Below are positions 2,822 to 47,336 of a DNA stretch of 64,000 nucleotides, one piece after another. A model generated the notes under the pieces. The model did no database searches. It saw only the letters and a list, made by a program, of their open reading frames with translations, and was not told the DNA's origin. Source of the DNA: Bradymonadales bacterium (GTDB lineage Bacteria > Myxococcota_A > UBA9042 > PWKZ01); contig PWKZ01000147.1 of assembly GCA_003559575.1 (NCBI GenBank), positions 35,471 to 99,470 on the forward strand, given 5' to 3'. Position numbers and translations under genes: made by a program. Position 1 is the stretch's first letter. The number at the start of each line of letters is the position of its first letter.

Positions 2822-2960
2822 TGTCTAGATTCCGGCGTGTACGGCGGGAGTATTGGGTGGGAATATTGGTCGGCGTCTTTGTGTTGATGCTCGTCGGGGA
2901 GAAACCGCGGGTGGCGCTTGCGCCGTTTTGGGGTGCAGGCCTTCGCTGAAAGGAGACCAT

Positions 2961-3953
2961 ATGGAGACCGGAGTCAAGGCGATTACGGAGATGGTCCGGC
3001 GCGAGAGCGCGTTCGTCGACCGAGTCCGGGAAGAGGTCGACAAAGTAATCGTTGGCCAGCAGGTGATGGTGGAGCGGCTGCTCATTGGGTTGCTCACCGG
3101 TGGGCATATTTTGCTCGAGGGGGTGCCGGGGCTGGCCAAAACCCTCACTGTCCGCACTGTCGCGGAGACCATGAACTCGCGCTTTCAGCGCATTCAGTTC
3201 ACGCCCGACCTGCTGCCGGCCGATCTCATCGGCACCATGATCTACAACCAGCACGACTCTTCGTTCTCGACCCGCAAGGGCCCGATCTTCGCCAACCTGG
3301 TGTTGGCCGACGAGATCAACCGCGCGCCGGCCAAGGTGCAAAGCGCGCTGCTCGAGGCCATGCAGGAGAAGCAGGTGACCATCGGCGAGAACACTCACAT
3401 TTTGGAGGAGCCGTTCCTGGTCATGGCGACCCAGAACCCGATCGAGCAAGAGGGCACCTACCCTCTGCCCGAAGCACAAGTGGATCGCTTCATGTTGAAA
3501 GTGCACGTGGGCTACCCCGGGCGCGAAGAGGAGCTAATCATCATGGAGCGCGCGACCGGGATAGAAAAGCTGCAGGCGGTCCGTCCGGTGATGACCTCGG
3601 CCGAGCTCTTGGCGGCGCGCGCGACGCTGCCGCACATAATTCTGGACGATAAGATCAAGCGCTATATCGTCGATCTCGTGTTCGCGACGCGAGAGCCGCA
3701 AGCCTACGGCCTGTCGCGCCTCGAGGGGCTCATCGGCTGGGGAGCCTCGCCACGCGCCAGCATCTACTTGAACCTGGCGGCGCGCGCCCACGCCTTCCTG
3801 CGGCACCACGGCTATGTGGACCCCGAAGACATCAAGAGTGTGGCCCTCGATGTGTTGCGCCACCGCGTGATCCCGACCTATGAGGCGGAAGCCGAGGAGT
3901 TGACCTCCGAGGATCTCGTCCAGCAAATCTTGGACAAGGTCGAGGTGCCGTGA
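2961..3953 (+). CDS. MoxR-family AAA+ ATPase (BatI-like)
   Basis: ATG at 2961 with AAAGGAGACC upstream. Walker A GVPGLAKT, Walker B LVLADEINRA, and sensor/arginine-finger region typical of MoxR (QNPIEQEGTYPLPEAQVDRF). Confidence 0.85.
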   Translation: METGVKAITEMVRRESAFVDRVREEVDKVIVGQQVMVERLLIGLLTGGHILLEGVPGLAKTLTVRTVAETMNSRFQRIQFTPDLLPADLIGTMIYNQHDSSFSTRKGPIFANLVLADEINRAPAKVQSALLEAMQEKQVTIGENTHILEEPFLVMATQNPIEQEGTYPLPEAQVDRFMLKVHVGYPGREEELIIMERATGIEKLQAVRPVMTSAELLAARATLPHIILDDKIKRYIVDLVFATREPQAYGLSRLEGLIGWGASPRASIYLNLAARAHAFLRHHGYVDPEDIKSVALDVLRHRVIPTYEAEAEELTSEDLVQQILDKVEVP

Positions 3954-5005
3954 TGCGGTCATCGCCTACCCCCACAAAGTGGGCGCCGAATCAAACGGCG
4001 GCGCCACGACGGACGGCACGCGAAGAGGTCGCTTTGCGACCGGTGAGCCGCGAGGTGCTACGGCGGATCCGCAAGATCGAGATCATCACGAACCGGCTCG
4101 TCAGCGATCAACTCGCCGGGCAGTACCAGAGTGTTTTCAAGGGGCGTGGGATGAGCTTCGACGAGGTGCGCCCTTATCAACCGGGGGATGAGATCCGCCA
4201 GATTGACTGGAACGTCTCGGCGCGCACCGGGGACATCTATGTCAAGCAGTTCGTCGAGGAGCGGGAGTTGACCATCCTGCTGGTGGTGGACGCCAGCGCC
4301 TCGCAGAGTTTCGGCACCCGTGAACAGACCAAGATCTCCGACGCCGCCTGGCTTTCGGCCCTTCTCGGGTTCTCGGCCATTCGCAACAATGACCGGGTGG
4401 GGCTAATCGCCTTCGTGGAGCAGGCCGAGGACACGCCGGAAGACGAGGCGCTGCTTTTCATTCCCCCCAAAAAAGGGCGTTCGCACTGCTTGCGGTTGGT
4501 GCGCGATGTGATGGCGGTCGAAGATTGGGCCGAGGCGCGGATAGCGGAGCGCCGTGAGCGCGCGAGGCCCGATGTGCAGACCCGCCTCGAGACCGCCCTT
4601 GGGTACTTGAACCGCGTCACCAGGCGGCGGGTGGTGGCGTTCTTGATCTCCGACTTCCGCGCCCACGGGTTCACCCAGGCGCTTGGGGTGACCTCCCAGC
4701 GTCACGACTTGATCCCCATCGTGACGAGCGATCCCGGAGAAGAGACACTCATCGGCGCCGGCCTGACCTTTTTCGAAGATCCCGAGACCGGCGAGCTTTT
4801 CCCGGGCTGGGTCGGCGGGCGCGCGCGGCGGCGTTTCGCCGCCGCTGAGGCGCGGCGACGCGCGGAGCTACAACAGACCTTCGCGCGCTACGGGATGGCG
4901 CCGATTGTCTTGCCGACGGGAGTGACGGAGGATCTGGAGAGCCGCGCTTCCCGTTACACGAAGGCGATTATCAACTATTTCCGCCTCCGGGCCAAACGGC
5001 AATGA
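3950..5005 (+). CDS. DUF58 family protein (MoxR partner, VWA-like fold)
   Basis: Start overlaps the moxR stop (ATGA). Motif DWNVSARTGDIYVKQFVEERELTILLVVDASASQSFG is characteristic of DUF58 proteins that follow MoxR ATPases. Confidence 0.8.
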   Translation: MMRSSPTPTKWAPNQTAAPRRTAREEVALRPVSREVLRRIRKIEIITNRLVSDQLAGQYQSVFKGRGMSFDEVRPYQPGDEIRQIDWNVSARTGDIYVKQFVEERELTILLVVDASASQSFGTREQTKISDAAWLSALLGFSAIRNNDRVGLIAFVEQAEDTPEDEALLFIPPKKGRSHCLRLVRDVMAVEDWAEARIAERRERARPDVQTRLETALGYLNRVTRRRVVAFLISDFRAHGFTQALGVTSQRHDLIPIVTSDPGEETLIGAGLTFFEDPETGELFPGWVGGRARRRFAAAEARRRAELQQTFARYGMAPIVLPTGVTEDLESRASRYTKAIINYFRLRAKRQ

Positions 5006-5027
5006 GCCCGTAAAAACGAGGGAGACC

Positions 5028-6614
5028 GTGGTCAGGCCATCTCGTCACAACGTCTGCTGCTTATGGGTGACGGCGCTCCTGCTGCTTCAAGCCGGCACCG
5101 GAGCGGGGCCGCTTTGGGCCTCCGACGTGTCCGACGCTCCCGAACGGCCGCAAGCAACGCTCCCCCGCGAGGAGTCGCCGCCGCGCTTCGAGCTCAACGT
5201 GGCGCCCGAGCAGATCGAGCTTGGCGCCGAGGTCCTCTATCGCGTGGTGTTCACGGCCCCCGAGGACTATCGTTTCTACTTCCCCTCGCCGCCGGCGCTT
5301 CAGCCGTTCGTGCTCGTCCCGGGCAGCCTGGTCACCCGCCGCGAGCCCGGAGAAGGCCCCGACCTGGGCCTCGTGAACACCGTAGTCGAGCTACGCCTCA
5401 GGAGCTACCGTCTCGGGGTGCGGTGGATCCCGGCCGTCGAGGTGGCCTTTTTGGGGCCCGAGGGGGAGACCGGCGTGGTGGATTTGCCGCGCCGGCGGGT
5501 CGAGGTAGTGGCCCGGGTGGCGGTGGACGATTTGCCGGCGCTGGCGAACCCGCCGCCGCCGCGCTCGGTCATCGCCACCAACTGGACGCTCGTCTGGGGG
5601 GCCGTCATCCTTGGCAGCGTGCTTGGCGCCGTGGTCCTGACTGTTCTGGCGCTATGGCTGTTTGGCGGCCGTCTGATGCGCCCGCCACCGCCGCCGCCGC
5701 CGCGCCCGCCCCACGAGACGGCGCTGATCAAGCTGGCCCAAATCGAGCGTGAGCGGCTGCCGGAGAGCGGCGCCTTGATGGACTACTATGTGCGGGTCAG
5801 CGAGGCGGTGCGTGAGTATCTCGGAGCGCGCTACCGCGTCGACGGCCTGATGATGACCACAGGCGAATTACTCCGGTCGCTCGAATCGGCCGATCTCAGA
5901 GGGGTCCCGCATAGCCGGGTGCGCGCTTTCTTGGAAGAGTGCGATCTGGTCAAGTTCGCCAACTTCGCACCGTCCCCCGAGGAGATCGAGTGGCTGCTCG
6001 CCACCGCCTATGGGTTGGTGCGCGACACGATGCAGGTCGTCACTCCCGAAGAGCAGGAGGCCGCGCGCCCGCAGGCGGCCGATCATCCCGCCCGCCCATC
6101 GGCGCGGGCCTTCGCGTGGTCGCTCGATCTGGCCTCGTTCGCATTGCCGGCCGGCGGCCTCCTGGTGCTCGGGCGGCTCATCGAGGCCGAATCGGTGTTT
6201 GTGGCCGCCGCCGTTCTGTTGGTGCTGCTTGGGCTGTTGCTGCGCGATTTGCCGTCGGCGGGGAGCCTCGGCAAGGCCATCACCGGCCTGCGCCTGGCCG
6301 GTTATCGGCCACCGGCCCAGGATCCCAAGACCCGGCGGCTGGTCCCCCAGGAGGGGAGGCTCCCCGGCGGCGGCGCCCGCGTCCGGCGTAACCTGGCACA
6401 GCTGGTCCCGTTCGTGGGTCAGGCGGTGGAGTTCGTGGTTTTGGCCCATGACCCCGACAGCCGACGACTGGGGGATCGCCTCGCCGGAACGGCGGTGCTG
6501 GATATTCGAGCGGTGGAGCGCAAGCGGGGGGGTGAGGTCGGCTTGTTGCTCGGCGCGATGGTGACGACTTTGTTGGCGTTGGCGGCGTTGGTAATGCCGC
6601 TCGTAGCGCTTTAG
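5028..6614 (+). CDS. Membrane protein: periplasmic domain + TM + poly-Pro linker + DUF4381-like region (KFANF) fused to C-terminal RDD-like domain
   Basis: Signal sequence LLLLQAGTGA; TM helix WTLVWGAVILGSVLGAVVLTVLALWLF followed by RPPPPPPPRPP. C-terminal hydrophobic segments with GKAITGLRLAG, resembling the RDD-family GKRxxGLRV motif. Located where DUF4381 sits in Bacteroides bat operons. Confidence 0.5.
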   Translation: MVRPSRHNVCCLWVTALLLLQAGTGAGPLWASDVSDAPERPQATLPREESPPRFELNVAPEQIELGAEVLYRVVFTAPEDYRFYFPSPPALQPFVLVPGSLVTRREPGEGPDLGLVNTVVELRLRSYRLGVRWIPAVEVAFLGPEGETGVVDLPRRRVEVVARVAVDDLPALANPPPPRSVIATNWTLVWGAVILGSVLGAVVLTVLALWLFGGRLMRPPPPPPPRPPHETALIKLAQIERERLPESGALMDYYVRVSEAVREYLGARYRVDGLMMTTGELLRSLESADLRGVPHSRVRAFLEECDLVKFANFAPSPEEIEWLLATAYGLVRDTMQVVTPEEQEAARPQAADHPARPSARAFAWSLDLASFALPAGGLLVLGRLIEAESVFVAAAVLLVLLGLLLRDLPSAGSLGKAITGLRLAGYRPPAQDPKTRRLVPQEGRLPGGGARVRRNLAQLVPFVGQAVEFVVLAHDPDSRRLGDRLAGTAVLDIRAVERKRGGEVGLLLGAMVTTLLALAALVMPLVAL

Positions 6615-6634
6615 GGGCGAAGGAGGCGAGGCGG

Positions 6635-7765
6635 ATGAGCTTCGCGAATCTGGAATTTTTGATTGTCGGCAGTGTCGCGACGCTTTTGGCCGCTTGGTAT
6701 GTCCTGCGGCGGCCGACCGCCGGCCTACGGGTGTCGGATGGATCCGCGGTTCGTCACGTCGCGCGCGCCGGCCGCGCGCGTTTCTGGCGTTTGCCGGATC
6801 TGTTGAGGCTGGCGGCGCTCGCGCTCCTCGTGGTCGCGCTGGCCCGTCCCCAGAGCGACTCGCTGACGGAGCTCACCGGCGAGGGCGCCGACATCATGAT
6901 CGCGCTCGACATGTCAGGTTCGATGAACGCCGTCGACATGAGCATGGAGGAGTTGGCTCTGTTGCAGGCGCGCGGGCAGGACCCGATGAATCGCTTTGAG
7001 GTGGCGCGCGATATCTTGAAGCAATTCATCGCCGGCCGCCGGGGGGATCGGATAGGCCTCATCATCTTCGGGCCGGAAGTGTATTTGAAGTTTCCGCTGA
7101 CACTGGACTACCGAATGATTGTGGCGCAGCTCGACTCGCTTGTGCTCGACAATGGGATTCGCACTTCCGATGGGGAGTGCACCAACCAATGCACCATCAG
7201 CGGCGCGGGGACGGCGCTCGGCGATGCCCTGGCGCGCGCCTATCGGCGGCTCAGGCACTCCGAGGCGGCGACCCGCGCGATTGTGCTCATCACGGACGGC
7301 GAGCGCGAGGGCGGTAAGCTCTGCCCGCGCATGGTCGCGACCTACATGGCCGACCAAGCGGATCAGGAGCAGATGCGGGTCTACACATTCCTGGTGGGGT
7401 CCCCCACCGCCATGACCACCCTCGTACCGCGCTACATCCGCCAAGTCGACCGGAGGCGCGGGGGGTATGATCTGGTGGTGGCCCGCGACGAGCGTGGGCG
7501 AGTGATCTATGAGCGCTCGCCGGAGCCGTTTGCCACCGATCCGCAGCTCATGCAAGAGATCGCGCGCCTGACCGGCGGGGAGTACTTCGAGGCCTTTGAT
7601 GAGCGCCAGTTTCGCGAGCAGTTCGAGGTGCTCGCCGGGACCGAGTTTCGCACCACCACTCGGACCCGTAAGCGGGATTTGTTCTTGCCGTGGCTGCTGG
7701 TGGGGCTTGGAGTGCTACTGCTCGAGTGGTGGCTGCGGGTCGGGCCGCTTCGAAAATTTCCGTGA
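6635..7765 (+). CDS. batA: BatA-like von Willebrand factor A domain membrane protein
   Basis: N-terminal TM pair, then VWA/MIDAS motif IMIALDMSGSM ... RIGLIIFG ... LITDGE. Same operon order as known bat clusters. Confidence 0.8.
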   Translation: MSFANLEFLIVGSVATLLAAWYVLRRPTAGLRVSDGSAVRHVARAGRARFWRLPDLLRLAALALLVVALARPQSDSLTELTGEGADIMIALDMSGSMNAVDMSMEELALLQARGQDPMNRFEVARDILKQFIAGRRGDRIGLIIFGPEVYLKFPLTLDYRMIVAQLDSLVLDNGIRTSDGECTNQCTISGAGTALGDALARAYRRLRHSEAATRAIVLITDGEREGGKLCPRMVATYMADQADQEQMRVYTFLVGSPTAMTTLVPRYIRQVDRRRGGYDLVVARDERGRVIYERSPEPFATDPQLMQEIARLTGGEYFEAFDERQFREQFEVLAGTEFRTTTRTRKRDLFLPWLLVGLGVLLLEWWLRVGPLRKFP

Positions 7766-7782
7766 GGGCGGGATGAAGGACG

Positions 7783-10700
7783 ATGAACTGGTCTGAACTC
7801 ACTTGGCAAAATGGTCACTTGTGGTGGGTCGTGCCTGTCGGGGTGGGGGTCGTCGCGCTCGGCTTCCTGCTCGTTTTTCTCTGGCGACAGAGGATGCTCG
7901 AACGGATCGCCGACCCGGCCCTCCGCGAACGTTTGGTGGAGACCTTGAGCCGCCCCCGGCAGGTGCTCAAGGCGGTCATCATGACCGTCGCCGTGGCGTT
8001 GCTGCTGCTCGCGGCGCTCCGGCCCCAGTACGGGGTGCGCGAGACCGAGGTGAGAAACGTCGGGATCGACATCGCCGTGTTGCTCGACGCCAGCCAGAGT
8101 ATGCTGGTGCGGGATGTGGTGCCCGACAGGTTCGTGGCCGCCCGGCAGGAGATAAGCCGGGTGCTCGAGGGCTTGAGTGGTGGCCGGGTGGCGCTCATTC
8201 CATTTTATTTCATCCCCTTCGTGCAGTCTCCGCTCACCTCCGACTTTGACGCGTTGCAGGTCTACTTGCGTGATCTGAGGCTCGATGACATCGCCGAACC
8301 CGAGATGCGCGGGACAAGTATCGGCCGCGCGCTGATGGCCGCCGTAGGGTTGTTGGCCCAGGATCGGGAGTTGCTCTCCGAGGCCGGGGCGGGCGTCGTC
8401 CCGGATTTGGACGAGGACCACGACGTGAGCGCGATGGACGGCAGCCGCTACAAGGCGATTCTGCTATTCACCGACGGCGAGGAGCACGAGGATCTCCCCG
8501 AGGAAATCTACACGGTGGCGGAGTCCGCCGGTATCCGGATCTTCTCCGTCGGGGTCGGGACACGGGCCGGTCACGCGGTGCCCATCGTGCAAGAGGACGG
8601 CGAGGTGACCGGAGTGCTCAAAGGCGAGGATGGCCACCCAATCTTCTCGGCGCTCAACGAGGAGCTGCTGGGCGGGCTGGCCGAGCGCACCGGCGGCGCC
8701 TATTTCAACTTCTCGGGCCGCTCGGTGGCCGACGAGCTTTTGGCCGAGATCGAGAAGCTCGAAAAGAAGGAGTTCGAAGCTCAGACCCGCGATCTTGGAG
8801 AGGATCGCTACCAATTCCTGTTGCTTCCGGCGCTGATACTGCTGATGGTCGAGGGGCTCATGTCTGATCGCTTGCGGCGCAGGAGAGCCACCGATGACAA
8901 GCGGCGGCAGGGAAAGCGCGGGAGACGCCGCCTTGGCGCGCTGGTTATGGCGCTGGTGCTGCTTGCCGGTCCCCAGGCCGTCGCCTGGGATCTCTTCAAG
9001 ACCCGGCAGAGCGACGTCGAGGCCGGGAACGCTCTGCTTCGGTCCGGGAGCCCACGCGAGGCGCTCGAGGCTTATGAGCGGGCGCGGGAGGTCTTGCCCG
9101 AACAGGCCGAGTTGCACTACGCCATTGGGGTCGCGCGGCACGAACTCGGAGAATATGACATGGCGGTGCGGGCACTTGAGCGGGCGCTCGAGCGGCTCCC
9201 GGATCTCGGTGTCGCCGAGGAGACGCGCGAGCTAAGGTTCGCCGTGCTGTTTGCCCTCGGGACGACCTATGCCGCATGGGGCGAACGAGCCGAGGCGCGG
9301 GCTCTAGGGCGGGCTGCCCCCGAAGAAGAGGAGGGACCGGAGCCGCGGCAGGACGCCCGGACCAAGGCCATCGAGCGGTTCGAGCGAGCGGTTCATTTCC
9401 TCGAGCGCGCCCTGAGATTCGAGCCGGGTCACGAGGGGGCGCTCCTCAACCTCGAGCTTGCCCTGCTGCGGGTGGATCCGCCATGTCATCTTCGCAACGA
9501 TGAATACGCCCCCAACGACACGTTCGACTCCGCGGCGGCGCTCGAGGTGGAAGATCTGCAAGAGGAGCAAATGTTTCCGCTCGTGCTGTGTCCCGGGGAG
9601 GACGACTGGTTCACGTTCGAGACCGAGCCCGGGGACCGGATTTTCGCCTCCGTCAAGACCGATAACCGCGCCGCCGAGCTCCGCGTCGCGCTCTATGCGC
9701 CGGACGGCGTCAGGGTGCGCCCTCCTGCCGGCAGTGAGAGAACGATCTCGGAGCTGAGCTATCAGGAGGGGGCGCTCGCGGGGCCGGTGAGGCTGCACGT
9801 CTTTGATCCGACCGAGGAGGAGAGCGACTATCGCTTGAAACTCCGAGTCCTGCCGGCCTGCGAGCGGCTGGACGATTCGTTCGAGCCCAACGACAGCTTC
9901 GAGGAGGCGCGGCTGGTGACCGACGAAGATCGGGAGAGGCTCGCGGCGCTCAGGTTGTGCCCCGGGAACGACGACTGGTTCAAGATCGATGTGCCCGACG
10001 AGTGGAGCTTGATGGTCATCGGTGAGTTCGACATCAAGCAGGGCCTCCCCGAGCTTGCGATCTTCGACGAGCAGCAAAATGAACTCATGCGGCGCTCGTT
10101 TTCGAGTGAGGAAGCGCAGGTTGATGACAGCGCGCCTTTGATGTTGAGCTTGCTCGAACCTCCTCCCGGTCGCTACCGCTTGAAGGTGACCGGCACCCTG
10201 GACGTCGAGGCGGCCTATGGGTTGACTCTCCAGGTGGTCCCCCCTTGTCCGGAGGGGGACGATCACATGGAGCCCAACGACGAGTTCGGGGAGGCCAAGC
10301 CGTTTCCCGAGGGGGAGCCGATGTTGCTCCGCCGGTGCCCCGACAACGACGACTGGTTCGAGGTGATGGCGAGCGGCGACGAGCGACGCGTGGTGACCGC
10401 CCTGTTCGATCACGAGAGCGGCGATTTGGCGCTCGAGCTCTACGATTCCAAGCAGCAACTCGTGGGCGAGAGCGATCAGAGCAGCGCTCAAATGGGCGGT
10501 GAGGCGCTCGTGTTACCCGAGGTGCCCGAGGAGGATGAGGTGCCGTATTATGTGCGAGTCACCTCGCACGTGAACGAGAGCAACTTCTATCTGCTCGAAT
10601 TGCGCGCTCCGGACGCCGATCCGGACGCGCCTGATGACGAGCGGGACGAACAAGACGAACAGGACGAGCGGGACGAACAGGACCGGCAAGACGAACGGGA

Positions 10701-10875
10701 CGAGCGGGACGAACAGGACCGGCAGGACGAACGGGACGAGCGGGACGAACAGGACGAGTTGGATGCGATGCGAGAGGAGATGGAGAAGCTCGATCGCAAC
10801 CCACGGAATCTCGAAGCGGAGCGGGCGCGACGCACCTCGCCGCTTGGCAATGCACGCCCGACAAAGCCGTGGTAG
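7783..10875 (+). CDS. batB: BatB-like VWA protein fused to TPR (BatC-like) region, three PPC-like beta-sandwich domains and an acidic (DERDEQ)n repeat tail
   Basis: N-terminal TMs and VWA MIDAS (IAVLLDASQSM, LFTDGEEHED). TPR helices around aa 400-500. Three ~110-aa repeats each starting (Y/F/M)xPND(S/T/E)F and containing CPGxDDWF, as in pre-peptidase C-terminal (PPC) domains. C-terminal DERDEQDEQDERDEQDRQDER... repeats. Confidence 0.75.
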   Translation: MNWSELTWQNGHLWWVVPVGVGVVALGFLLVFLWRQRMLERIADPALRERLVETLSRPRQVLKAVIMTVAVALLLLAALRPQYGVRETEVRNVGIDIAVLLDASQSMLVRDVVPDRFVAARQEISRVLEGLSGGRVALIPFYFIPFVQSPLTSDFDALQVYLRDLRLDDIAEPEMRGTSIGRALMAAVGLLAQDRELLSEAGAGVVPDLDEDHDVSAMDGSRYKAILLFTDGEEHEDLPEEIYTVAESAGIRIFSVGVGTRAGHAVPIVQEDGEVTGVLKGEDGHPIFSALNEELLGGLAERTGGAYFNFSGRSVADELLAEIEKLEKKEFEAQTRDLGEDRYQFLLLPALILLMVEGLMSDRLRRRRATDDKRRQGKRGRRRLGALVMALVLLAGPQAVAWDLFKTRQSDVEAGNALLRSGSPREALEAYERAREVLPEQAELHYAIGVARHELGEYDMAVRALERALERLPDLGVAEETRELRFAVLFALGTTYAAWGERAEARALGRAAPEEEEGPEPRQDARTKAIERFERAVHFLERALRFEPGHEGALLNLELALLRVDPPCHLRNDEYAPNDTFDSAAALEVEDLQEEQMFPLVLCPGEDDWFTFETEPGDRIFASVKTDNRAAELRVALYAPDGVRVRPPAGSERTISELSYQEGALAGPVRLHVFDPTEEESDYRLKLRVLPACERLDDSFEPNDSFEEARLVTDEDRERLAALRLCPGNDDWFKIDVPDEWSLMVIGEFDIKQGLPELAIFDEQQNELMRRSFSSEEAQVDDSAPLMLSLLEPPPGRYRLKVTGTLDVEAAYGLTLQVVPPCPEGDDHMEPNDEFGEAKPFPEGEPMLLRRCPDNDDWFEVMASGDERRVVTALFDHESGDLALELYDSKQQLVGESDQSSAQMGGEALVLPEVPEEDEVPYYVRVTSHVNESNFYLLELRAPDADPDAPDDERDEQDEQDERDEQDRQDERDERDEQDRQDERDERDEQDELDAMREEMEKLDRNPRNLEAERARRTSPLGNARPTKPW
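10636..10758 (+). repeat. Tandem ~36-bp (GACGAGCGGGACGAACAGGACCGGCAGGACGAACGG-like) coding repeat, about 3.5 units
   Basis: Direct tandem repetition visible in the sequence. It encodes the acidic DERDEQDRQDER tail of the BatB-like protein and also generates spurious minus-strand ORFs (10513..10881, 10559..10891). Confidence 0.8.
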
Positions 10876-10917
10876 AAGCACCGGAGGGCAAGAGCGACGG
10901 GGAAGGCTAAGCAGGAG

Positions 10918-12699
10918 TTGATGAGAGGGCGGGTTGCCATAGCAGTCGGAGTCGTTGTGCTGTCGGTCTTCGTGGCCCGGTCGGCGCCGGCACAGGAGGT
11001 CGAGCTGTCGGTCGACCGGCGGGTGCTCTCCATGGACGAGGACCTACAGGTCGAGGTGCGCGCCACGGGCGCCTTCGATGAGCTGGTGCAGCCGGAGACC
11101 CCGGGCTTTGAGGTGGGAGGCACCTCGCGCTCCTCCGAGATCTCGATGGGGCCTTCCGGCACCGTCCAGTCGCATGTCCTCCGTTTGACTCTGGTCCCGA
11201 CCTCCCCCGGCCGCCATCGCCTGGGCCCGGCGAGTGTTCGCAGTGGAGGCCGGGAGGTGGCGCGCTCCGAGCCCGTCTTCGTGACCGTCAAGGACGTACC
11301 GCAGGTGACGGTGTCGCCGGAGCAGGCCGGCGAGCTTGAATCGCGGGCCGGCGAGCGCTATTTCCTGGTGCCGGTGTTTCCTGAGCGCCCGCTCTATGTG
11401 GGTGAACCGTTCGTGCTCAGTTACAAGCTTTATACGCGCGCCGACTCGCCGGTGACGAATGCCTCCTGGCGCGAGGTGCCGGAGCTTGCCGCCTTTTCGG
11501 TTGAGAACCTGCTCCGCTCGCAACGGCGGCGCTCACAGCGGCGCACCATCGGGCGTTATACCTATAACGTCTCCTTGCAGCTCCAGTATCTAGCGGTGCC
11601 GCTCTCGGCCGAGTCGGGCAGGGTGGAGGGAGCGGTTTTGGACGTTGTCGCCGGCGATTTTTTTCAGCGCCGGCGCTACACAGTGCGGGCGCCTTCGTTC
11701 GAACTGGACATAAGGCCGCTGCCGGCCGAGGGTCGACCACCAGAGTTTCAATCAGGCAACATCGGCCGCTTTGAACTCGAGACCGACTTGCACCCGACGA
11801 CGGTCGGCGCCGGGGAACGCGCGGTGTTGACTCTGCGAGTCACCGGCCGGGGCGCGTTGGAGAGCGTGCGGCCGCCCCGATTGCCGGAGGCGCTCGGCGC
11901 CGAGCTTCTGCCCACCGGCGATGGCGATCGGATTGAGAGGAGCGCGGCGGGGGTCGAGGGGACCCGCGTCTTCCGCTATGTTCTCGTGCCGCATGAGCCG
12001 GGCAAGCTCACGATCCCGCCAATCCGTCTGGCTTACTTCGACCCCGAGCGAGCGCGCTATCGCGTGGTGACGAGCGCGCCGATGGATCTCGAGGTCACCG
12101 GGGAGGCACCGCCGACGCGCGCGGCGGCCCTCACGGCCGAAGTCGACGAGGAGTCATTCCTTCTCGGGCTCAGGGACATTCGCGCCGAGAGCGATCTCAC
12201 CTCGCGCCGTCCTCCGGTGCGGCCCCACCGCGCGTGGTGGTTCTGGACGCTTCTGGCAGTCCCGGCGGCGCTCCTCCTGGCGGTGGAATTCGTCGTTTGG
12301 TTGAAGCGATACAAGGCGCGCACGGAGCCCCGGCGCCGGATGCGTCGCGCCGCGGCCGTTTTCCGGCGCGCCCTCAAGGCGGCGCGACGAAAGCTCCGCG
12401 CCGGCGACTCGCGCGCTTTCTTTGAGATCATCGGGACAGCGCTCAGGGAGTTTTGTTACAACCGCTTCGGACTCTCGGTGCGAGGACTGACGCACGGCCA
12501 GCTCCGTCGCCGGTTGGTCGAACTCGGCGCCGATCCGGAGTTCGCCGAGGCGGTGGTGGCGGAGCTCGAGAACACCGACTTCGCGCGCTATGCGCCCGTG
12601 AACATGCGCGATGACGAGATGCGCGGCTCCCTGGAGCGCTCGTGGCGGCTGGTGGCGTCGCTCAACCGGTTGCCGAGGAGGGCCGACGGCGATGAATAG
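10918..12699 (+). CDS. batD: BatD-like protein
   Basis: Signal peptide MMRGRVAIAVGVVVLSVFVARSAPAQ, large periplasmic region, C-terminal TM (WWFWTLLAVPAALLLAVEFVVWL) then basic cytoplasmic tail: the BatD architecture. Lies in the operon position of BatD. Confidence 0.65.
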   Translation: MMRGRVAIAVGVVVLSVFVARSAPAQEVELSVDRRVLSMDEDLQVEVRATGAFDELVQPETPGFEVGGTSRSSEISMGPSGTVQSHVLRLTLVPTSPGRHRLGPASVRSGGREVARSEPVFVTVKDVPQVTVSPEQAGELESRAGERYFLVPVFPERPLYVGEPFVLSYKLYTRADSPVTNASWREVPELAAFSVENLLRSQRRRSQRRTIGRYTYNVSLQLQYLAVPLSAESGRVEGAVLDVVAGDFFQRRRYTVRAPSFELDIRPLPAEGRPPEFQSGNIGRFELETDLHPTTVGAGERAVLTLRVTGRGALESVRPPRLPEALGAELLPTGDGDRIERSAAGVEGTRVFRYVLVPHEPGKLTIPPIRLAYFDPERARYRVVTSAPMDLEVTGEAPPTRAAALTAEVDEESFLLGLRDIRAESDLTSRRPPVRPHRAWWFWTLLAVPAALLLAVEFVVWLKRYKARTEPRRRMRRAAAVFRRALKAARRKLRAGDSRAFFEIIGTALREFCYNRFGLSVRGLTHGQLRRRLVELGADPEFAEAVVAELENTDFARYAPVNMRDDEMRGSLERSWRLVASLNRLPRRADGDE

Positions 12700-13504
12700 C
12701 CCCAAGAGAACTCTGCGCGTGACGTCCGGTGTCCTGTCTCTGCTTCTGCTCGTGCTGAGCGCGCTCCCGGCGGGGGCGGCCACCCTGCAAGAGCAGTTCA
12801 ATCGCGCCAACCAGCACTACTGGGATGGTGAGTACGAGGCCGCGCAGGAGCTCTACCAAGATCTGGCGGAGCGCTATCGGATCGAGAACCCCGAGCTGTA
12901 CCACAACCTCGCCAACAGTTACGCAAAGACCGGACAGCTCGGCGTGGCGGTGCTGTATTACAACCGCGCTCTGGCGGCGTCGCCCGGTCCCGAGACCAGA
13001 GTGGCGGCCACGGCCAACCTGGAGCGCACCCGCGCCGCTCTTGCCGCCGCCCACCAGAAGCACATCAGGCCACAGCGGGCGTTGTTCGCCGAGGGCCACG
13101 GGGTCTTCTACGCGCTCTTTCAGTTGCTCTCCGAGCCCACTCTCGCGGTGATCTTCCTGGCGCTCTTTTTCTCTCTGGTGGCGGTGCTGCTGCTGCGCCA
13201 CCTGCCTGCCTACGGTCTCAAGCGCGCCACCAAGCCGCTCGCCCTGACCTTGCTATTCCTTCTGCTCATCACCGGAGGGTGGCTGGCCGGCAACATCGCC
13301 ACTACCGAGAGCGTGCGGTCGGGGATCGTCCTCGTGGCGGACACCCCGCTCCGGGCCACGCGATTGCCCCACTCACCGCGCGTAACCTTGCCCGAGGGGC
13401 TGGAGGTGGCCATCTCGGGCGAGCCGGACGACGGCTTGTTGCGAGTGCGCCTCGCCGGCGGTCGCGAGGGGTTCGTCCCCGCGGAGAACATCGGTGAGAT
13501 CTAA
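12692..13504 (+). CDS. BatE-like TPR + SH3b-like domain protein
   Basis: ATG at 12692 overlaps the batD stop. Signal peptide and TPR (NPELYHNLANSYAKTGQLGVAVLYYNRALAASPG); central TM segments; C-terminal SH3b-like GLLRVRLAGGREGFVPAENI. Confidence 0.6.
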   Translation: MNSPKRTLRVTSGVLSLLLLVLSALPAGAATLQEQFNRANQHYWDGEYEAAQELYQDLAERYRIENPELYHNLANSYAKTGQLGVAVLYYNRALAASPGPETRVAATANLERTRAALAAAHQKHIRPQRALFAEGHGVFYALFQLLSEPTLAVIFLALFFSLVAVLLLRHLPAYGLKRATKPLALTLLFLLLITGGWLAGNIATTESVRSGIVLVADTPLRATRLPHSPRVTLPEGLEVAISGEPDDGLLRVRLAGGREGFVPAENIGEI

Positions 13505-42957: not shown

Positions 42958-43138
42958 TCTCTTTCAGGGCAGTGTGTCTCCGGAGGCGCGCTCGCTTCGA
43001 CCAAGATTCAGTGTAGCACCGCCGAGGCAGTTACATCCAGGCGGGAGGGGGCCTTTGCCGGATTGAGGACTGCGGAGGTACAATCGCGTCGGCTGTTGAC
43101 GAATTGAGCGCAGCAGACCGCTTCCATGAGGAGACGAC

Positions 43139-45073
43139 ATGATGTTACCACGGCTCGCTCTGTTTCTGGTGCTCACTTGCAACCTCGCTTGCTCGCTTTC
43201 GAGCACGCCGAAGGAGTACCCGGGCGAGCGCCCTGTTCACGCCGCCACATCGGCGACGCCGATGGTGGCGGCGGCGGTCCTCGGGGAGGACCATCCGGGC
43301 GATGGGCAGGCAAACTGCACCCAATGTCATGGGGTCCCTCACGGCGGCACGCGGAGCGACCACTGTGCCGTCTGTCACGGCTTGAACGCCGCTCCCCCTC
43401 GTCCGGTGGACCACGCGGCGGTCGCTTGCGCCGCTTGTCACGCCCACAGTCACGAAGAGGCCGACTTCTTTGGCGACGAACAAAGCTGCGCGGTTTGCCA
43501 TCACTACGCGGCGCCGTCCTCTTGTGGCATCACCAAGAGCTATGACGTGATCGTGGTGGGGGCAGGCGGCGGCGGGCTTGCGGCCGCGGCGCGGCTCGCG
43601 CGTTCCGGCTACAAGGTGCTGCTACTCGAAAAACACAACAAGGTGGGTGGCTACATGACGAACTTCGTCCGCGGTGATTACCGTTTCGAGGTCTCGCTTC
43701 ACGCGATGGGAGGGCTGAACGAGGGGGGTTCGGTTCATGCCATGTTCGAGCGGCTGGGAATCCTCGAGCACGTCCAGATCGTAGCCTCCGATCCGCTTTA
43801 CCGGGTCGTGATGCCGGGGCTGACTTTTGACGTCCCGGCCGATATCGGCGCATACGAGGCGCGGCTCAAGGAGACCTTCCCCGCAGAGGCCGAAGCGCTT
43901 GCGGCCTTCTTCCAACTGACCGACGACGTCGATCACGCCTTGGAGGCCATAGTGGCGATGCTGGCCGGCGACATGGCGCCCATCAACGCACTCGTGGCCG
44001 AGCGGCCGCAAGCGATGGCCACAATCCTGGGTTACATGGACGCCACGCTTGCCGAGGTGATGCGTAACTACTTCGAAGACGAGACACTCATGGCGCTCAT
44101 GACCCAGCTTGCATGCTACGCGGGCGCTGAACCGGAGCGCCTGTCGGCGGCCTTCTTCATGGCGATGTGGAACAGCTATCATCGCACCGGATTCTTCAAC
44201 TTCATCGGCGGATCCCAGGCGGTCTCGGACGCGATGGCGGAGGTGGTTCGGCAGAATGGCGGGGAGGTGCAGCTCGGGAGCTTGGTGGAAGAGATAGTGA
44301 TCGAAGACGGGCGCGCCACCGCCGTGCGCACGGCCGACGGGAGTTGCTACCGGACCCGCTTTGTGGTCTCCAACGCCAACCCAGCCACGACCCTCGAGCT
44401 CATCGGACGCGACAACCTGCCCGAGGAGTGGGTCACCGAGGTCGAGGAGGCACGCGTGGCCTTCTCGATCTTCGTGGTCTACCTTGGGGTCGATCACGAC
44501 TTCGTGCCGGAGATGGATGGCGCCCACGAGATAATCATCCAGGCCCACGCGACGATGGACGCTCCCTACCGCGCCATCGAGGAGTGCGACGTGGACGGGA
44601 CGATGCTGTTGGTGACCAATTATTCGCTCATCGATCCGACCGCCGCGCCCGAGGGCAAGAACCTCATCACGATCACCGGAGGGCTGGACTACGACTGCTT
44701 TGAACAGTGGGGCTGGGCCAACCGCGACGGTTATTTTGACATCCGCGACGAGCTGGCTTGGCGGGTGGTGGCGCGTACCGAGGAGCTGTTGCCCGGGCTG
44801 AGTGGTCATGTGGAGGTGATGGAGGTCGCCTCACCGATCACGATGGAGAAGTTCACCTTGAACCCGCGCGGCACAATCTACGGCTCCGAGCCCTCGCCGG
44901 ATCAGGCCTTGACGGAGCGTCTGGATCCGCAGACGCCAATCCCCAACGTGCTCCTGGCCGGCGCCTGGACTTTCCCCGGTCCGGGGCAGTCGGCGGTCCT
45001 GCAGAGCGGAGAGATCGCCGCCGAAACCATTTTGGAGGTTGATGCAGACATGGCGACCGGAGTCGTCCCGTGA
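43139..45073 (+). CDS. Periplasmic flavocytochrome: N-terminal tetraheme cytochrome c domain fused to phytoene-desaturase (CrtI)/amine-oxidase family FAD oxidoreductase
   Basis: Signal peptide MMLPRLALFLVLTCNLACS; four CxxCH motifs (CTQCH, CAVCH, CAACH, CAVCH) within aa 60-125. Then Rossmann FAD motif DVIVVGAGGGGLAAAARLARSGYKVLLLEKHNKVGGY and CrtI-like body to the C-terminus. Confidence 0.75.
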   Translation: MMLPRLALFLVLTCNLACSLSSTPKEYPGERPVHAATSATPMVAAAVLGEDHPGDGQANCTQCHGVPHGGTRSDHCAVCHGLNAAPPRPVDHAAVACAACHAHSHEEADFFGDEQSCAVCHHYAAPSSCGITKSYDVIVVGAGGGGLAAAARLARSGYKVLLLEKHNKVGGYMTNFVRGDYRFEVSLHAMGGLNEGGSVHAMFERLGILEHVQIVASDPLYRVVMPGLTFDVPADIGAYEARLKETFPAEAEALAAFFQLTDDVDHALEAIVAMLAGDMAPINALVAERPQAMATILGYMDATLAEVMRNYFEDETLMALMTQLACYAGAEPERLSAAFFMAMWNSYHRTGFFNFIGGSQAVSDAMAEVVRQNGGEVQLGSLVEEIVIEDGRATAVRTADGSCYRTRFVVSNANPATTLELIGRDNLPEEWVTEVEEARVAFSIFVVYLGVDHDFVPEMDGAHEIIIQAHATMDAPYRAIEECDVDGTMLLVTNYSLIDPTAAPEGKNLITITGGLDYDCFEQWGWANRDGYFDIRDELAWRVVARTEELLPGLSGHVEVMEVASPITMEKFTLNPRGTIYGSEPSPDQALTERLDPQTPIPNVLLAGAWTFPGPGQSAVLQSGEIAAETILEVDADMATGVVP

Positions 45074-45750
45074 AAAAAAAAGCTACCGAAGTCATCGCAC
45101 GCGCCGAGACCGACGACGGGTTGCTGGAGCTCGTCCGGCGGGCCGACGGCGCCTATCTGATTCTACACGGCGGTCGAGTGTTGATGAACAGTGCCCAGAA
45201 CCGCTCGGAGGTGGTGCTCGGCGAGCTGGCGGCCCGGGCGGTGGCCGACAGGACAGCACCGCGAGTGCTGGTGGGTGGCCTCGGGATGGGCTTGACGCTG
45301 CGCGCGGTCCTGGCGATTCTGCCGCGGCGGGCCGAGGTGCTGGTCGCCGAACTCAACCCGGTGGTGGTCTCCTGGTGCGAGGGGCCCCTCGCACCGCTCA
45401 ACGGAGCGGCGCTCGACGATCCGCGGGTGCGTTTACAGATCGGCTGCGTGGCGGCGGTCCTTGCGGCGGCACGCGCGGCCGGCGGCACGCGACGGTTTGA
45501 CGCGGTGTTGTTCGACCTCTACGAAGGGCCGCGGACCGCCACCCAGGGTGCCGACGACCCCTTGTATGGCCGCGCCGCCATCGGCGCGGCGCGCGGCGCG
45601 CTCTGCTCCGACGGCGTGTTCGCGGTATGGGGCGAGGCCCCGGACGCGCCCTTTGAGGCCCGCCTGAAACGGGCGGGCTTCACAGTCAGCCGCCACCGCC
45701 CCGGCCGCGGTGGTCACCGGCATGTGGTCTATCTCGCGAATCTCGCCTAG
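45070..45750 (+). CDS. Spermidine-synthase-like / class I SAM-dependent methyltransferase-fold protein
   Basis: GTG start overlapping the upstream stop (GTGA). Motif VLVGGLGMGLTLRAVL...VLVAELNPVV... is consistent with the polyamine aminopropyltransferase-like fold. Assignment is tentative. Confidence 0.5.
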   Translation: MKKKATEVIARAETDDGLLELVRRADGAYLILHGGRVLMNSAQNRSEVVLGELAARAVADRTAPRVLVGGLGMGLTLRAVLAILPRRAEVLVAELNPVVVSWCEGPLAPLNGAALDDPRVRLQIGCVAAVLAAARAAGGTRRFDAVLFDLYEGPRTATQGADDPLYGRAAIGAARGALCSDGVFAVWGEAPDAPFEARLKRAGFTVSRHRPGRGGHRHVVYLANLA

Positions 45751-45881: not shown

Positions 45882-47336
45882 TCAGAGGTAGGGCGCGAAG
45901 AGACGGCAGAAGCCGTCTCGGAGCCTCACGGGGACAGAGCGACCGTCGACCTCGGCCTTGCTCAAGAGTCTCGACTCATTCGCCCGGTGGTCGAAATACT
46001 CCGCCATCCGCGCCGCGAGGCCGCGGCCGTATGCCTCGACGTTGAGTTCGAAATTGAGCCGCAGACTCCGCGGGTCCCAGTTGGCCGACCCGAGAAAGAC
46101 CCAGGTCTCGTCGACCACCATCAGCTTCGTATGCTCGAACGGCGGCGGCGACAGATGGATCCTGCATCCCCCCGCCAACACCTGCCAGAGCTGAGCGGTG
46201 CTCGCCCACTGAACGGCCCGCAGGTTGCCGTCAGAGGGGAGGATGACATCCACCTGGACCCCCCTCATCGAGGCCAGGCACAGCTCGCTTATCAATGTCT
46301 GATCCGGCAGGAAATAGGGGGTCATCACCCGCACTGAACGCCGTGCCGCCGACAACGCCCCGAACAATATCCAGCGCAGCTTGTCCGGATTGCCGTCGGG
46401 CCCGTCGACCACCGCGCGCGCCACCACCGGCCCGCTCCCCTCGGCGAGATCGATTGCAAGCCAGTCGGCTCCCTCGAGCCTCTCGCCCGTGGTGAAGGCC
46501 CAATCCTCGATGAAAGCGATCTGCAACTGGGAGACCACCGGCCCCTCGATTCGAAAGTGCACGTCGAGGGTGGGTCTCTTGGGATTTTTCGAGAGCCAGT
46601 GGTCGACGCGGATATTCATCCCCCCTGTGAAAGCGATGCGTCCGTCGACAACCAAGCACTTGCGGTGGTTGCGGAGATTCAAATAGGGCATGCGCCACGG
46701 CAGAAGAGTCGGCAGGAAACGCGCGGCTTCGATCCCGGCGCGGCGCATCAGGGTTATCATCGTGGGAAACGAGTAGCGTGAGCCCACCGAGTCGACGAGC
46801 ACACGAACCGCGACGCCTCTCGCGTGGGCGCTCTTCAGGGCCTCCAGAAATGCGGCGCCGGCCTCATCGTTGTCGAAGATGTAGCTGCAAAGCGTGATCG
46901 AACGTTTGGCGCCGTCGATCATTTCGAGCATGGCGGGATAGGCCTCATCCCCGCCGAACAAAGGATCGACTCGATTGCCGCGGGTCAGCGGATGCCTCGT
47001 GATCTCATCGGCCACCCGAACCAGATCGAAGAGGTGCCGGTCGCTGTCCCCAATCACCTCGTCCAACCCCGGGAAGTTGCTCTCGCGGGGGTCCCGCGGC
47101 GCCCGGAGCGTCGGTCGATGAGCCAAGAGCGCCTCGGCGCGCCGCTCGATGCGATTAATCCCCAGGAAAAGATAGAGCAGCGCCCCGACCACCGGGGCGA
47201 GCCAGATCAAGGCGAACCACCCGGACGCGGAGCGCATATCGCGCTTGAAGAGGATCGCATGCCCCGAAGCCACTAGCGAGATTAGAATAGTCAGTGCTCC
47301 GGCCAGATGCGGCCAGATGACGCTCAGGACTTCCAT
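45882..47336 (-). CDS. cls: Cardiolipin synthase (two HKD motifs, PLD superfamily)
   Basis: Two N-terminal TMs; first PLD/HKD region (HRKCLVVDGRIAFTGGMNI); second HKD (HTKLMVVDETWVFLGSANWDPRSLRLNFELNV). Confidence 0.8.
   Translation of the reverse strand: MEVLSVIWPHLAGALTILISLVASGHAILFKRDMRSASGWFALIWLAPVVGALLYLFLGINRIERRAEALLAHRPTLRAPRDPRESNFPGLDEVIGDSDRHLFDLVRVADEITRHPLTRGNRVDPLFGGDEAYPAMLEMIDGAKRSITLCSYIFDNDEAGAAFLEALKSAHARGVAVRVLVDSVGSRYSFPTMITLMRRAGIEAARFLPTLLPWRMPYLNLRNHRKCLVVDGRIAFTGGMNIRVDHWLSKNPKRPTLDVHFRIEGPVVSQLQIAFIEDWAFTTGERLEGADWLAIDLAEGSGPVVARAVVDGPDGNPDKLRWILFGALSAARRSVRVMTPYFLPDQTLISELCLASMRGVQVDVILPSDGNLRAVQWASTAQLWQVLAGGCRIHLSPPPFEHTKLMVVDETWVFLGSANWDPRSLRLNFELNVEAYGRGLAARMAEYFDHRANESRLLSKAEVDGRSVPVRLRDGFCRLFAPYL

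Follow-up and report, generated by a model that had tools for sequence, protein, structure and literature searches.

Fcc3-type flavocytochromes c serve as the model of periplasmic respiration of soluble organic electron acceptors. Carotenoids, retinoids and squalene-type lipids are the substrates of the known members of the CrtI-type flavoprotein fold. Fusions of NicA2-type amine oxidoreductases to a monohaem cytochrome c have also been described (FAO-CytC fusions; PMC12224317). Here we report that a 64,000-nucleotide stretch of contig PWKZ01000147.1 from a Bradymonadales bacterium (the whole of which we call the window) encodes a protein in which a tetrahaem cytochrome c module is joined to a CrtI-like flavin adenine dinucleotide (FAD) domain within one polypeptide. 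The protein belongs to an uncharacterised flavocytochrome c family, mis-annotated though populous in metagenomes, in which the wiring of the Fcc3 style is applied to an unrelated flavin fold.

The fusion is real and is neither a frame error nor an assembly artefact, as it occupies one continuous frame and the identical protein is found in two independent metagenome-assembled genome (MAG) assemblies (GCA_007127155.1 and GCA_003566035.1). All four haem-attachment motifs (CxxCH) and the flavin domain share a single frame with DVIVVGAGGGGLAAAARL (aa 136-153), GC content at third codon positions (GC3) is uniform at 0.81 across that frame, and the gene is the only one among about 55 predicted in the window to have any CxxCH motif. 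An earlier note on this DNA had placed the haem sites in frame with the flavoprotein and had named a different frame or a separate gene as what would speak against it; on checking, motifs and domain lie in the same frame of the same open reading frame (ORF; Table 1). That assembly or gene calling made one gene out of separate cytochrome and flavoprotein genes is virtually excluded: besides the uniform frame and the two assemblies, dozens of divergent clusters carry the same fusion with two invariant, fusion-specific cysteines, Cys129 and Cys403. We found no point in support of such an artefact and dismissed it, since frame, assemblies and homologues all contradict it. We regard the architecture and cofactor complement of the fusion protein as close to certain.

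Table 1. Coordinates of the flavocytochrome gene, its elements and the gene downstream (window positions), and of the related Acidobacteria operon (positions within each locus)
Feature	Position	Strand	Remarks
Sigma-70-like promoter candidate, TTGCCG-18-TACAAT	43055..43084	+	Consensus match only
Shine-Dalgarno sequence, GAGGAG	43128..43133	+	5 nt ahead of the ATG of the flavocytochrome gene
Flavocytochrome gene	43139..45073, stop included	+	Single uninterrupted ORF, 644 aa
Sec-type signal peptide ending at Cys18 (NLAC)	43139..43192	+	Cys18 is the probable lipoprotein acylation site
Motif H-A-A-T-S-A-T-P, residues 34-41	43238..43261	+	23 aa ahead of the haem 1 Cys
Cytochrome c3-like tetrahaem module, aa 42-130	43262..43528	+	Conservation, profile match, pLDDT 78-91
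CxxCH 1, aa 60-64	43316-43330	+
CxxCH 2, aa 76-80	43364-43378	+
CxxCH 3, aa 97-101	43427-43441	+
CxxCH 4, aa 117-121	43487-43501	+
Cys129, in the linker ahead of the Rossmann fold	43523..43525	+	61/61 fusion proteins versus 0/19 haem-less relatives
CrtI/CrtISO/RetSat-superfamily FAD domain, aa 135-636	43541..45046	+	Pfam, NCBIfam, PDB, Foldseek
GxGxxG dinucleotide-binding motif	43559-43576	+
Cys403, in the flavin domain	44345..44347	+	61/61 fusion proteins versus 0/19 haem-less relatives
Aminopropyltransferase-like gene (class I S-adenosylmethionine fold), 226 aa	45070..45750	+	GTG overlaps the TGA stop (GTGA); GGAG 7 nt upstream
Acidobacteria split flavocytochrome operon	L057 9-845 and 871-1224; L051 3372-6090	L057 +; L051 -

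Like the class III cytochromes c (c3, high-molecular-weight cytochrome c (Hmc), nine-haem cytochrome c and small tetrahaem cytochrome (STC)), the haem module packs four CxxCH (occasionally CxxxxCH) motifs into about 90 residues together with four extra conserved histidines. In an alignment of 61 fusion proteins hardly any sequence departs from the eight cysteines and four histidines of the motifs (each present in 60-61), His52, His68 and His105 are kept in every sequence and His92 in 53, while no conserved methionine was found. These four histidines are the candidate distal ligands, and four bis-His haems would be the simplest reading of their conservation. Class III cytochromes with bis-His haems are generally of low potential. 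A family profile compared with solved structures matched Hmc (E 3e-11), nine-haem cytochrome c (E 4e-6), cytochrome c3 (E 3e-4) and STC (E 9e-4), and its match to the Fcc3 haem domain was marginal (E 1.5). A Pfam check, as the earlier note had proposed, assigned the region to no haem family above threshold (Cytochrom_c3_2 reached 19.6 bits where 25 are required), the c3-type kinship emerging from the family profile instead. Unlike the class III cytochromes, the module thus stays below threshold in Pfam, and it bears a signature of its own, H-x-G-W ... CxxCHGxNGAPxRP. No structural neighbours of the module were detectable from the AlphaFold2 (AF2) model. The haem 4 motif lies only about 15 residues ahead of the Rossmann fold.

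The rest of the protein is the complete flavoprotein of the CrtI/amine-oxidase family that the earlier note had described. Pfam matches include Amino_oxidase (PF01593; aa 146-632, 4.9e-28) and NAD_binding_8, and a match to FAD_binding_2 (PF00890) is restricted to the first 40 or so Rossmann residues (aa 136-174). The NCBIfam models of CrtI, CrtISO and CrtD match at 1e-52 to 1e-41 and all below cutoff: crtI_fam (TIGR02734) and carot_isom (TIGR02730) align over their full length with 178.9 bits (cutoff 238.1) and 177.1 bits (cutoff 586.9), and the CrtD model scores 142 bits (cutoff 549.7). CrtO is also among the NCBIfam matches, no amine-oxidase model is, and the flavocytochrome c model NF005064 reaches 29.7 bits (cutoff 542). 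The full-length AF2 model is of high confidence (predicted local distance difference test, pLDDT, 90.7; predicted template modelling score, pTM, 0.90). Its best Foldseek matches are the CrtD-like gamma-carotene desaturase 4rep (E 4.7e-32, TM-score 0.85) and CrtI 4dgk (E 3.5e-25), ahead of rice phytoene desaturase (PDS), monoamine oxidases and NicA2. PDB sequence searches returned 4dgk and 4rep, identity to solved structures being about 20%. In our reading FAD is held non-covalently.

Of the strictly fusion-specific cysteines (Table 1), one lies in the linker and one in the flavin domain, and a second pair, Cys483 and Cys520 (44585-44587 and 44696-44698), is present in about 40 of the 61 fusion proteins. 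Cys129-Cys403 and Cys483-Cys520 are candidate periplasmic disulfides, the first of which would join both domains. Haem-less relatives conserve cysteines at the 406- and 511-equivalent positions instead, which suggests that the exported haem-bearing and haem-less clades differ in their disulfide pattern.

The protein is predicted to be exported via Sec, by which c-type cytochromes must leave the cytoplasm unfolded. As the earlier note had it, the protein begins with a signal peptide, here residues 1-18; Cys18 sits at the lipobox position and aligns with the lipobox cysteine in 56 of 61 fusion homologues. A canonical lipobox is present in 43 of the 61 and a twin-arginine motif in none. A lipid anchor probably holds the protein at the membrane. 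The linker that follows (residues 17-38) is modelled with low confidence (pLDDT <50).

We searched for the family among the 120 best clusters of a database of 5.8 billion proteins. About 60 of them are built alike, from a signal peptide, four haem motifs and the flavin domain (630-705 aa, 41-56% identity), and an exhaustive search of 50%-identity representatives gave about a dozen fusion clusters. A profile search of that database with the haem module by itself, limited by the word filter, yielded four proteins. The rarity implied by the earlier note is therefore not borne out, the family being a populous metagenomic one. Its remark that a CrtI-like partner is not known to be described holds in our hands: a literature search found no paper describing the pairing of a tetrahaem module with the CrtI superfamily. 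The note had also named, as what would overturn its reading, a fusion both common and functionally assigned; the fusion is common, and no functional annotation of the family was found. Public entries are named "FAD-dependent oxidoreductase" or, automatically, "prolycopene isomerase" (Joint Genome Institute, JGI, pipelines) or "all-trans-retinol 13,14-reductase" (retinol 13,14-reductase). Pipelines that assign the names "prolycopene isomerase" and "FAD-dependent oxidoreductase" overlook the haem module entirely. When one genome of each species was scanned with a degenerate DNA pattern encoding CxxCHGxNGAP, which favours signature-bearing members and would not match the window copy itself (NAAP), the fusion appeared in uncultured MAGs only and never in a cultured isolate; the taxa were mostly Myxococcota (Myxococcales, Polyangia, Sandaracinaceae and Anaeromyxobacteraceae).

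The nearest relatives without the fusion, of about 535 aa and 45-50% identity, have no haem module and keep their signal peptides, which places the flavin domain in an exported clade. More distant, cytosolic relatives of the flavin domain (P0191, P0214 (~915 aa) and P0178 (971 aa); 32-34% identity) are fused either to FNR-like FAD_binding_6, NAD_binding_1 and Fer2 domains or to Pyr_redox_2 and a BFD [2Fe-2S] domain. These fusions are a further uncharacterised way to connect a CrtI-like domain with a source of electrons. Such modules are typical NAD(P)H-driven electron donors, and their presence suggests that the CrtI-like clade may need a dedicated electron supply in either compartment. Two variants carry twelve haems, P0128 (1018 aa) and P0146 (1238 aa), having an octahaem domain added at the C-terminus; P0146 further carries a PF00932 domain (Lamin Tail Domain) and, C-terminally, a hydrophobic segment with an RRFRRRK end, a tail that suggests a cell-surface electron conduit. 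Separately, P0144 (778 aa) and P0127 (671 aa) are apparent circular permutations in which the haem module still adjoins the Rossmann start, the order being lipobox, C-terminal flavin half, middle part, D-x-x-T-G/A-A-T-P, tetrahaem module and Rossmann start; they could alternatively be mis-joined tandem paralogues.

The haem module is found in other company too. The one-genome-per-species scan showed it standing alone in cytochromes of 110-200 aa in Myxococcota and Acidobacteriota. A 117-aa Acidobacteria cytochrome of this kind (hhalign probability 99.2%, E 6e-20 against the family profile) is encoded in MAGs 25 nt downstream of a Tat-exported (twin-arginine translocation) flavoprotein of the FAD_binding_2 type (PF00890, 3e-60). 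This pair is a split version of the classical flavocytochrome c3 or methacrylate-reductase system, and it shows that the module repeatedly partners periplasmic flavoproteins of the fumarate-reductase type. The module is also C-terminal in lipoproteins of 600-720 aa from Shewanella and Ferrimonas. The c3-like unit is therefore modular: it occurs alone, beside fumarate-reductase-type flavoproteins, fused to a CrtI-like domain and at the C-terminus of these lipoproteins.

The Shewanella and Ferrimonas lipoproteins were seen at L012 (NZ_FNEM01000001.1 192001-200000), L035, L039, L009 and about 40 further loci. Their C-terminal ~150 aa are homologous to the haem module of the window (hhalign probability 97%, E 1e-10), and their N-terminal domain of about 500 aa has no Pfam or NCBIfam match; in some of them this domain contains LSTGAT. 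Ferrimonas sediminum has at least six paralogues.

The earlier note had supposed electron exchange with the respiratory chain, which is the natural reading for an exported haem-flavin protein, and we consider it highly probable that the family is a respiratory-chain-coupled oxidoreductase. We put at about even the chance that it is, more specifically, a Sec-exported and probably lipid-anchored periplasmic flavocytochrome c that reduces carbon-carbon double bonds (C=C) of a hydrophobic substrate, a reading whose direction and substrate class we infer. The haems would then be a short wire linking the periplasmic or respiratory electron-transfer network to FAD. Electrons from the quinol pool would pass through a membrane cytochrome to the four haems and on to FAD, which would saturate a C=C bond in an isoprenoid, polyene or lipid-like substrate. 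A reductive role is favoured because of the c3-like, putatively bis-His haems, the donor-fused relatives and the pairing of the module with fumarate-reductase-type flavoproteins, and the CrtI/RetSat-type fold is what suggests a hydrophobic substrate. A bolder proposal, which we think unlikely on present evidence, casts the family as terminal reductase in an unrecognised type of anaerobic respiration: uncultured Myxococcota, along with other bacteria of sediments, would pass electrons to unsaturated hydrophobic compounds (isoprenoids, polyenes or lipids) on the periplasmic side of the inner membrane.

The same parts might run in the opposite direction, as a periplasmic dehydrogenase or desaturase (C-C to C=C) whose haems pass electrons to the respiratory chain; we rate this as possible, if somewhat unlikely. 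The closest solved folds are those of desaturases (4rep, 4dgk and rice PDS) and NicA2 is among the fold matches, there are documented periplasmic dehydrogenases of the Amino_oxidase family with cytochrome c as a partner or as a fused domain (PMC12224317), and the twelve-haem variants, with the cell-surface-type tail, would fit electron export. However, the documented dehydrogenases have monohaem class I cytochromes and Tat export where this family has a c3-type module, and haems with four conserved distal histidines and no conserved methionine would have low potentials ill-suited to accepting electrons from C-C desaturation. The fusion of relatives to NAD(P)H-dependent donor modules, and the pairing of the homologous stand-alone module with fumarate-reductase-type flavoproteins, likewise argue for reduction.

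A redox-neutral, CrtISO-like isomerase, whose haems would merely reduce or re-reduce the flavin in an oxidising periplasm, is improbable. The carot_isom score lies near that of crtI_fam, and the JGI name is consistent with such a function, but the same score falls far under the model's own cutoff. A wire of four haems, in a covalent fusion that has been conserved, would also be costly for occasional re-reduction, and no carotenoid (crt) genes lie within +/-10 kb of the fusion gene.

Several points weigh against the reductive reading and should be set beside it. CrtI enzymes are desaturases, hence oxidative, and CrtISO is redox-neutral, so that reduction does not follow from the fold by itself. 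No specific chemistry is backed by a substrate, a partner or an operon context: all-against-all clustering of the neighbours at 17 fusion loci gave no conserved partner, and the contexts of three haem-less relatives were unrelated, with no conserved neighbour. Bis-His ligation and low haem potential are putative, read from sequence conservation. The window copy has neither the family-typical Trp55 nor Gly84, and its lipobox, NLAC, is non-canonical. Finally, the neighbour-joining tree of the flavin domain, in which 76 haem-bearing sequences fall into one clade holding only 11 of 59 exported haem-less sequences, carries no support values.

Ahead of the haem module, the fusion proteins share a short motif of the form [D/H/E]-A-[V/I]-[T/S]-[S]-A-[T/S]-P, with the consensus D-A-V-T-S-A-T-P. 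Ala39, Pro41 and Thr/Ser40 are conserved in all 61 sequences and Thr/Ser37 in 60. The motif is absent from the stand-alone and the Shewanella and Ferrimonas versions of the haem module, which ties it to the fusion with the flavoprotein. It is similar to the sequence flavinylated by ApbE, D-x-x-[S/T]-G-A-[S/T] (PMC12052999; also PMC8238504), which the family's D-A-V-T-S-A-T fits at six of seven positions; at the glycine position 51 of 61 sequences have serine and three have glycine. Like the ApbE substrates (NqrC, RnfG, UrdA, PplA and DUF2271; PMC8238504), the fusion protein is extracytosolic, with its motif in a flexible N-terminal linker. Unlike them, it has no FMN_bind domain and no linked apbE, and the glycine is mostly serine.

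That the motif threonine is flavinylated by ApbE seems to us doubtful. The canonical form does occur in a few members (DRLTGAT in P0144 and DDVSGAS in P0146), ApbE works on the periplasmic side and at flexible termini, and a change of G to A in the motif reportedly keeps about 50% of flavinylation (PMC12052999). Yet histidine, asparagine or tyrosine replaces the glycine in a few members, and the protein has no flavin mononucleotide (FMN)-binding domain. A tblastn search with E. coli ApbE found nothing in the 64-kb window or at any fusion locus, and a Pfam scan of ten other ORFs of the window gave no ApbE match. Alternatively, the motif may have a structural part in the interface between the domains. 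Taken to its extreme, our proposal has a flavinylated motif that would give a wire of three cofactors, running from covalent FMN through four haems to FAD. The flavinylation it presupposes is a long shot; if true, this wire would join two extracytosolic electron-transfer strategies that are mostly seen as alternatives.

The gene downstream overlaps the flavocytochrome gene by four nucleotides, the GTG start overlapping the TGA stop just as the earlier note had stated, and this start is backed by homologues of about 225 aa. The protein has no signal peptide and no Pfam match, its best PDB match has an E value of 0.003, and its scores against SpeE models are low (PRK03612, 34.8 against a cutoff of 472; PRK00811, 22.6 against a cutoff of 260). 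Its family has more than 2200 matches, at about 55-63% identity, in Nitrospirota, Thermoanaerobaculia, Deltaproteobacteria and others, and an aminopropyltransferase-like gene was absent beside the other fusion genes at all loci examined. Because the family is so widespread and none of the 17 fusion loci revealed a conserved neighbour, the overlap is probably a sign of co-transcription at this locus, and the two-gene unit that the earlier note had suggested is not supported.

The two genes bear on a further alternative, in which the protein is a periplasmic amine or polyamine oxidoreductase acting together with the aminopropyltransferase-like product. The Pfam Amino_oxidase family includes polyamine oxidases, and no terminator-like site was found between or after the two overlapping genes. 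The flavin domain nonetheless matches the CrtI, CrtISO, CrtD and CrtO models and no amine-oxidase model, which also turns aside the amine substrate offered in the earlier note. The downstream protein, having no signal peptide, would reside in another compartment, and its ubiquitous family adjoins no other fusion gene. This missing linkage largely refutes the idea, and we consider it very improbable.

Upstream, the promoter candidate (Table 1) is one site seen against 0.2 expected in shuffled sequences, and a search for a riboswitch ahead of the flavocytochrome gene found none. Genes of lipid metabolism lie beside the fusion in three places, namely a PF01553 acyltransferase (L003 10062-10799), a DAGAT/acyltransferase (L005 6608-7669) and, in the window, a cardiolipin synthase (45882-47336); they are not homologous to each other, their presence may be coincidence, and the association is too weak for use. 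B12-binding radical SAM genes of 464-467 aa adjoin one fusion gene (L007 5103-6497) and one haem-less exported relative (L130 8666-10069). Elsewhere in the window are a BamD (YfiO)-like lipoprotein gene (507-1451), an aerotolerance-operon-like series of MoxR AAA+ ATPase, DUF58, BatA-type VWA and TPR genes (2853-13504, + strand) and, beyond the cardiolipin synthase gene and convergent to the flavocytochrome gene, a V/A-type ATPase operon (47567-~55000, - strand) with proteolipid c, a 613-aa I subunit, D, B and A.

The CrtI family (CrtI 4dgk, CrtD-like 4rep, CrtISO and RetSat) shares its three-domain FAD fold with the fusion protein. The latter differs in falling below the cutoff of all curated models, in being exported, in carrying a haem module and in lacking a crt context. 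NicA2 or Pnao with CycN (PMC12224317) offers a second comparison: these enzymes are also periplasmic members of the Amino_oxidase superfamily that exchange electrons with a c-type haem instead of O2, some of them as fusions, but they belong to the true amine oxidoreductase branch, are exported via Tat, use a single class I haem and work in the oxidative direction.

The closest likeness in layout is to Fcc3 of Shewanella (FccA/Fcc3, Ifc3), in which a single polypeptide, exported via Sec to the periplasm, likewise has an N-terminal tetrahaem module and directly after it a domain that binds FAD non-covalently. With Fcc3 and related systems, among them the split methacrylate reductase (Mrd flavoprotein plus tetrahaem cytochrome), the family would share the presumed role of a quinol-pool-fed C=C reductase. 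It differs in that its flavin domain is of the CrtI/amine-oxidase type and not of the FAD_binding_2/succinate-dehydrogenase type, and in that it is probably lipid-anchored. If the role of respiratory reductase is true, it would extend the organic electron acceptors to hydrophobic alkenes and open a way into the energy metabolism of uncultured Myxococcota, about which little is known. Based on these comparisons, we suggest that the family most likely corresponds in function to Fcc3 of Shewanella and to the reductases of urocanate and methacrylate, while using another flavin fold.

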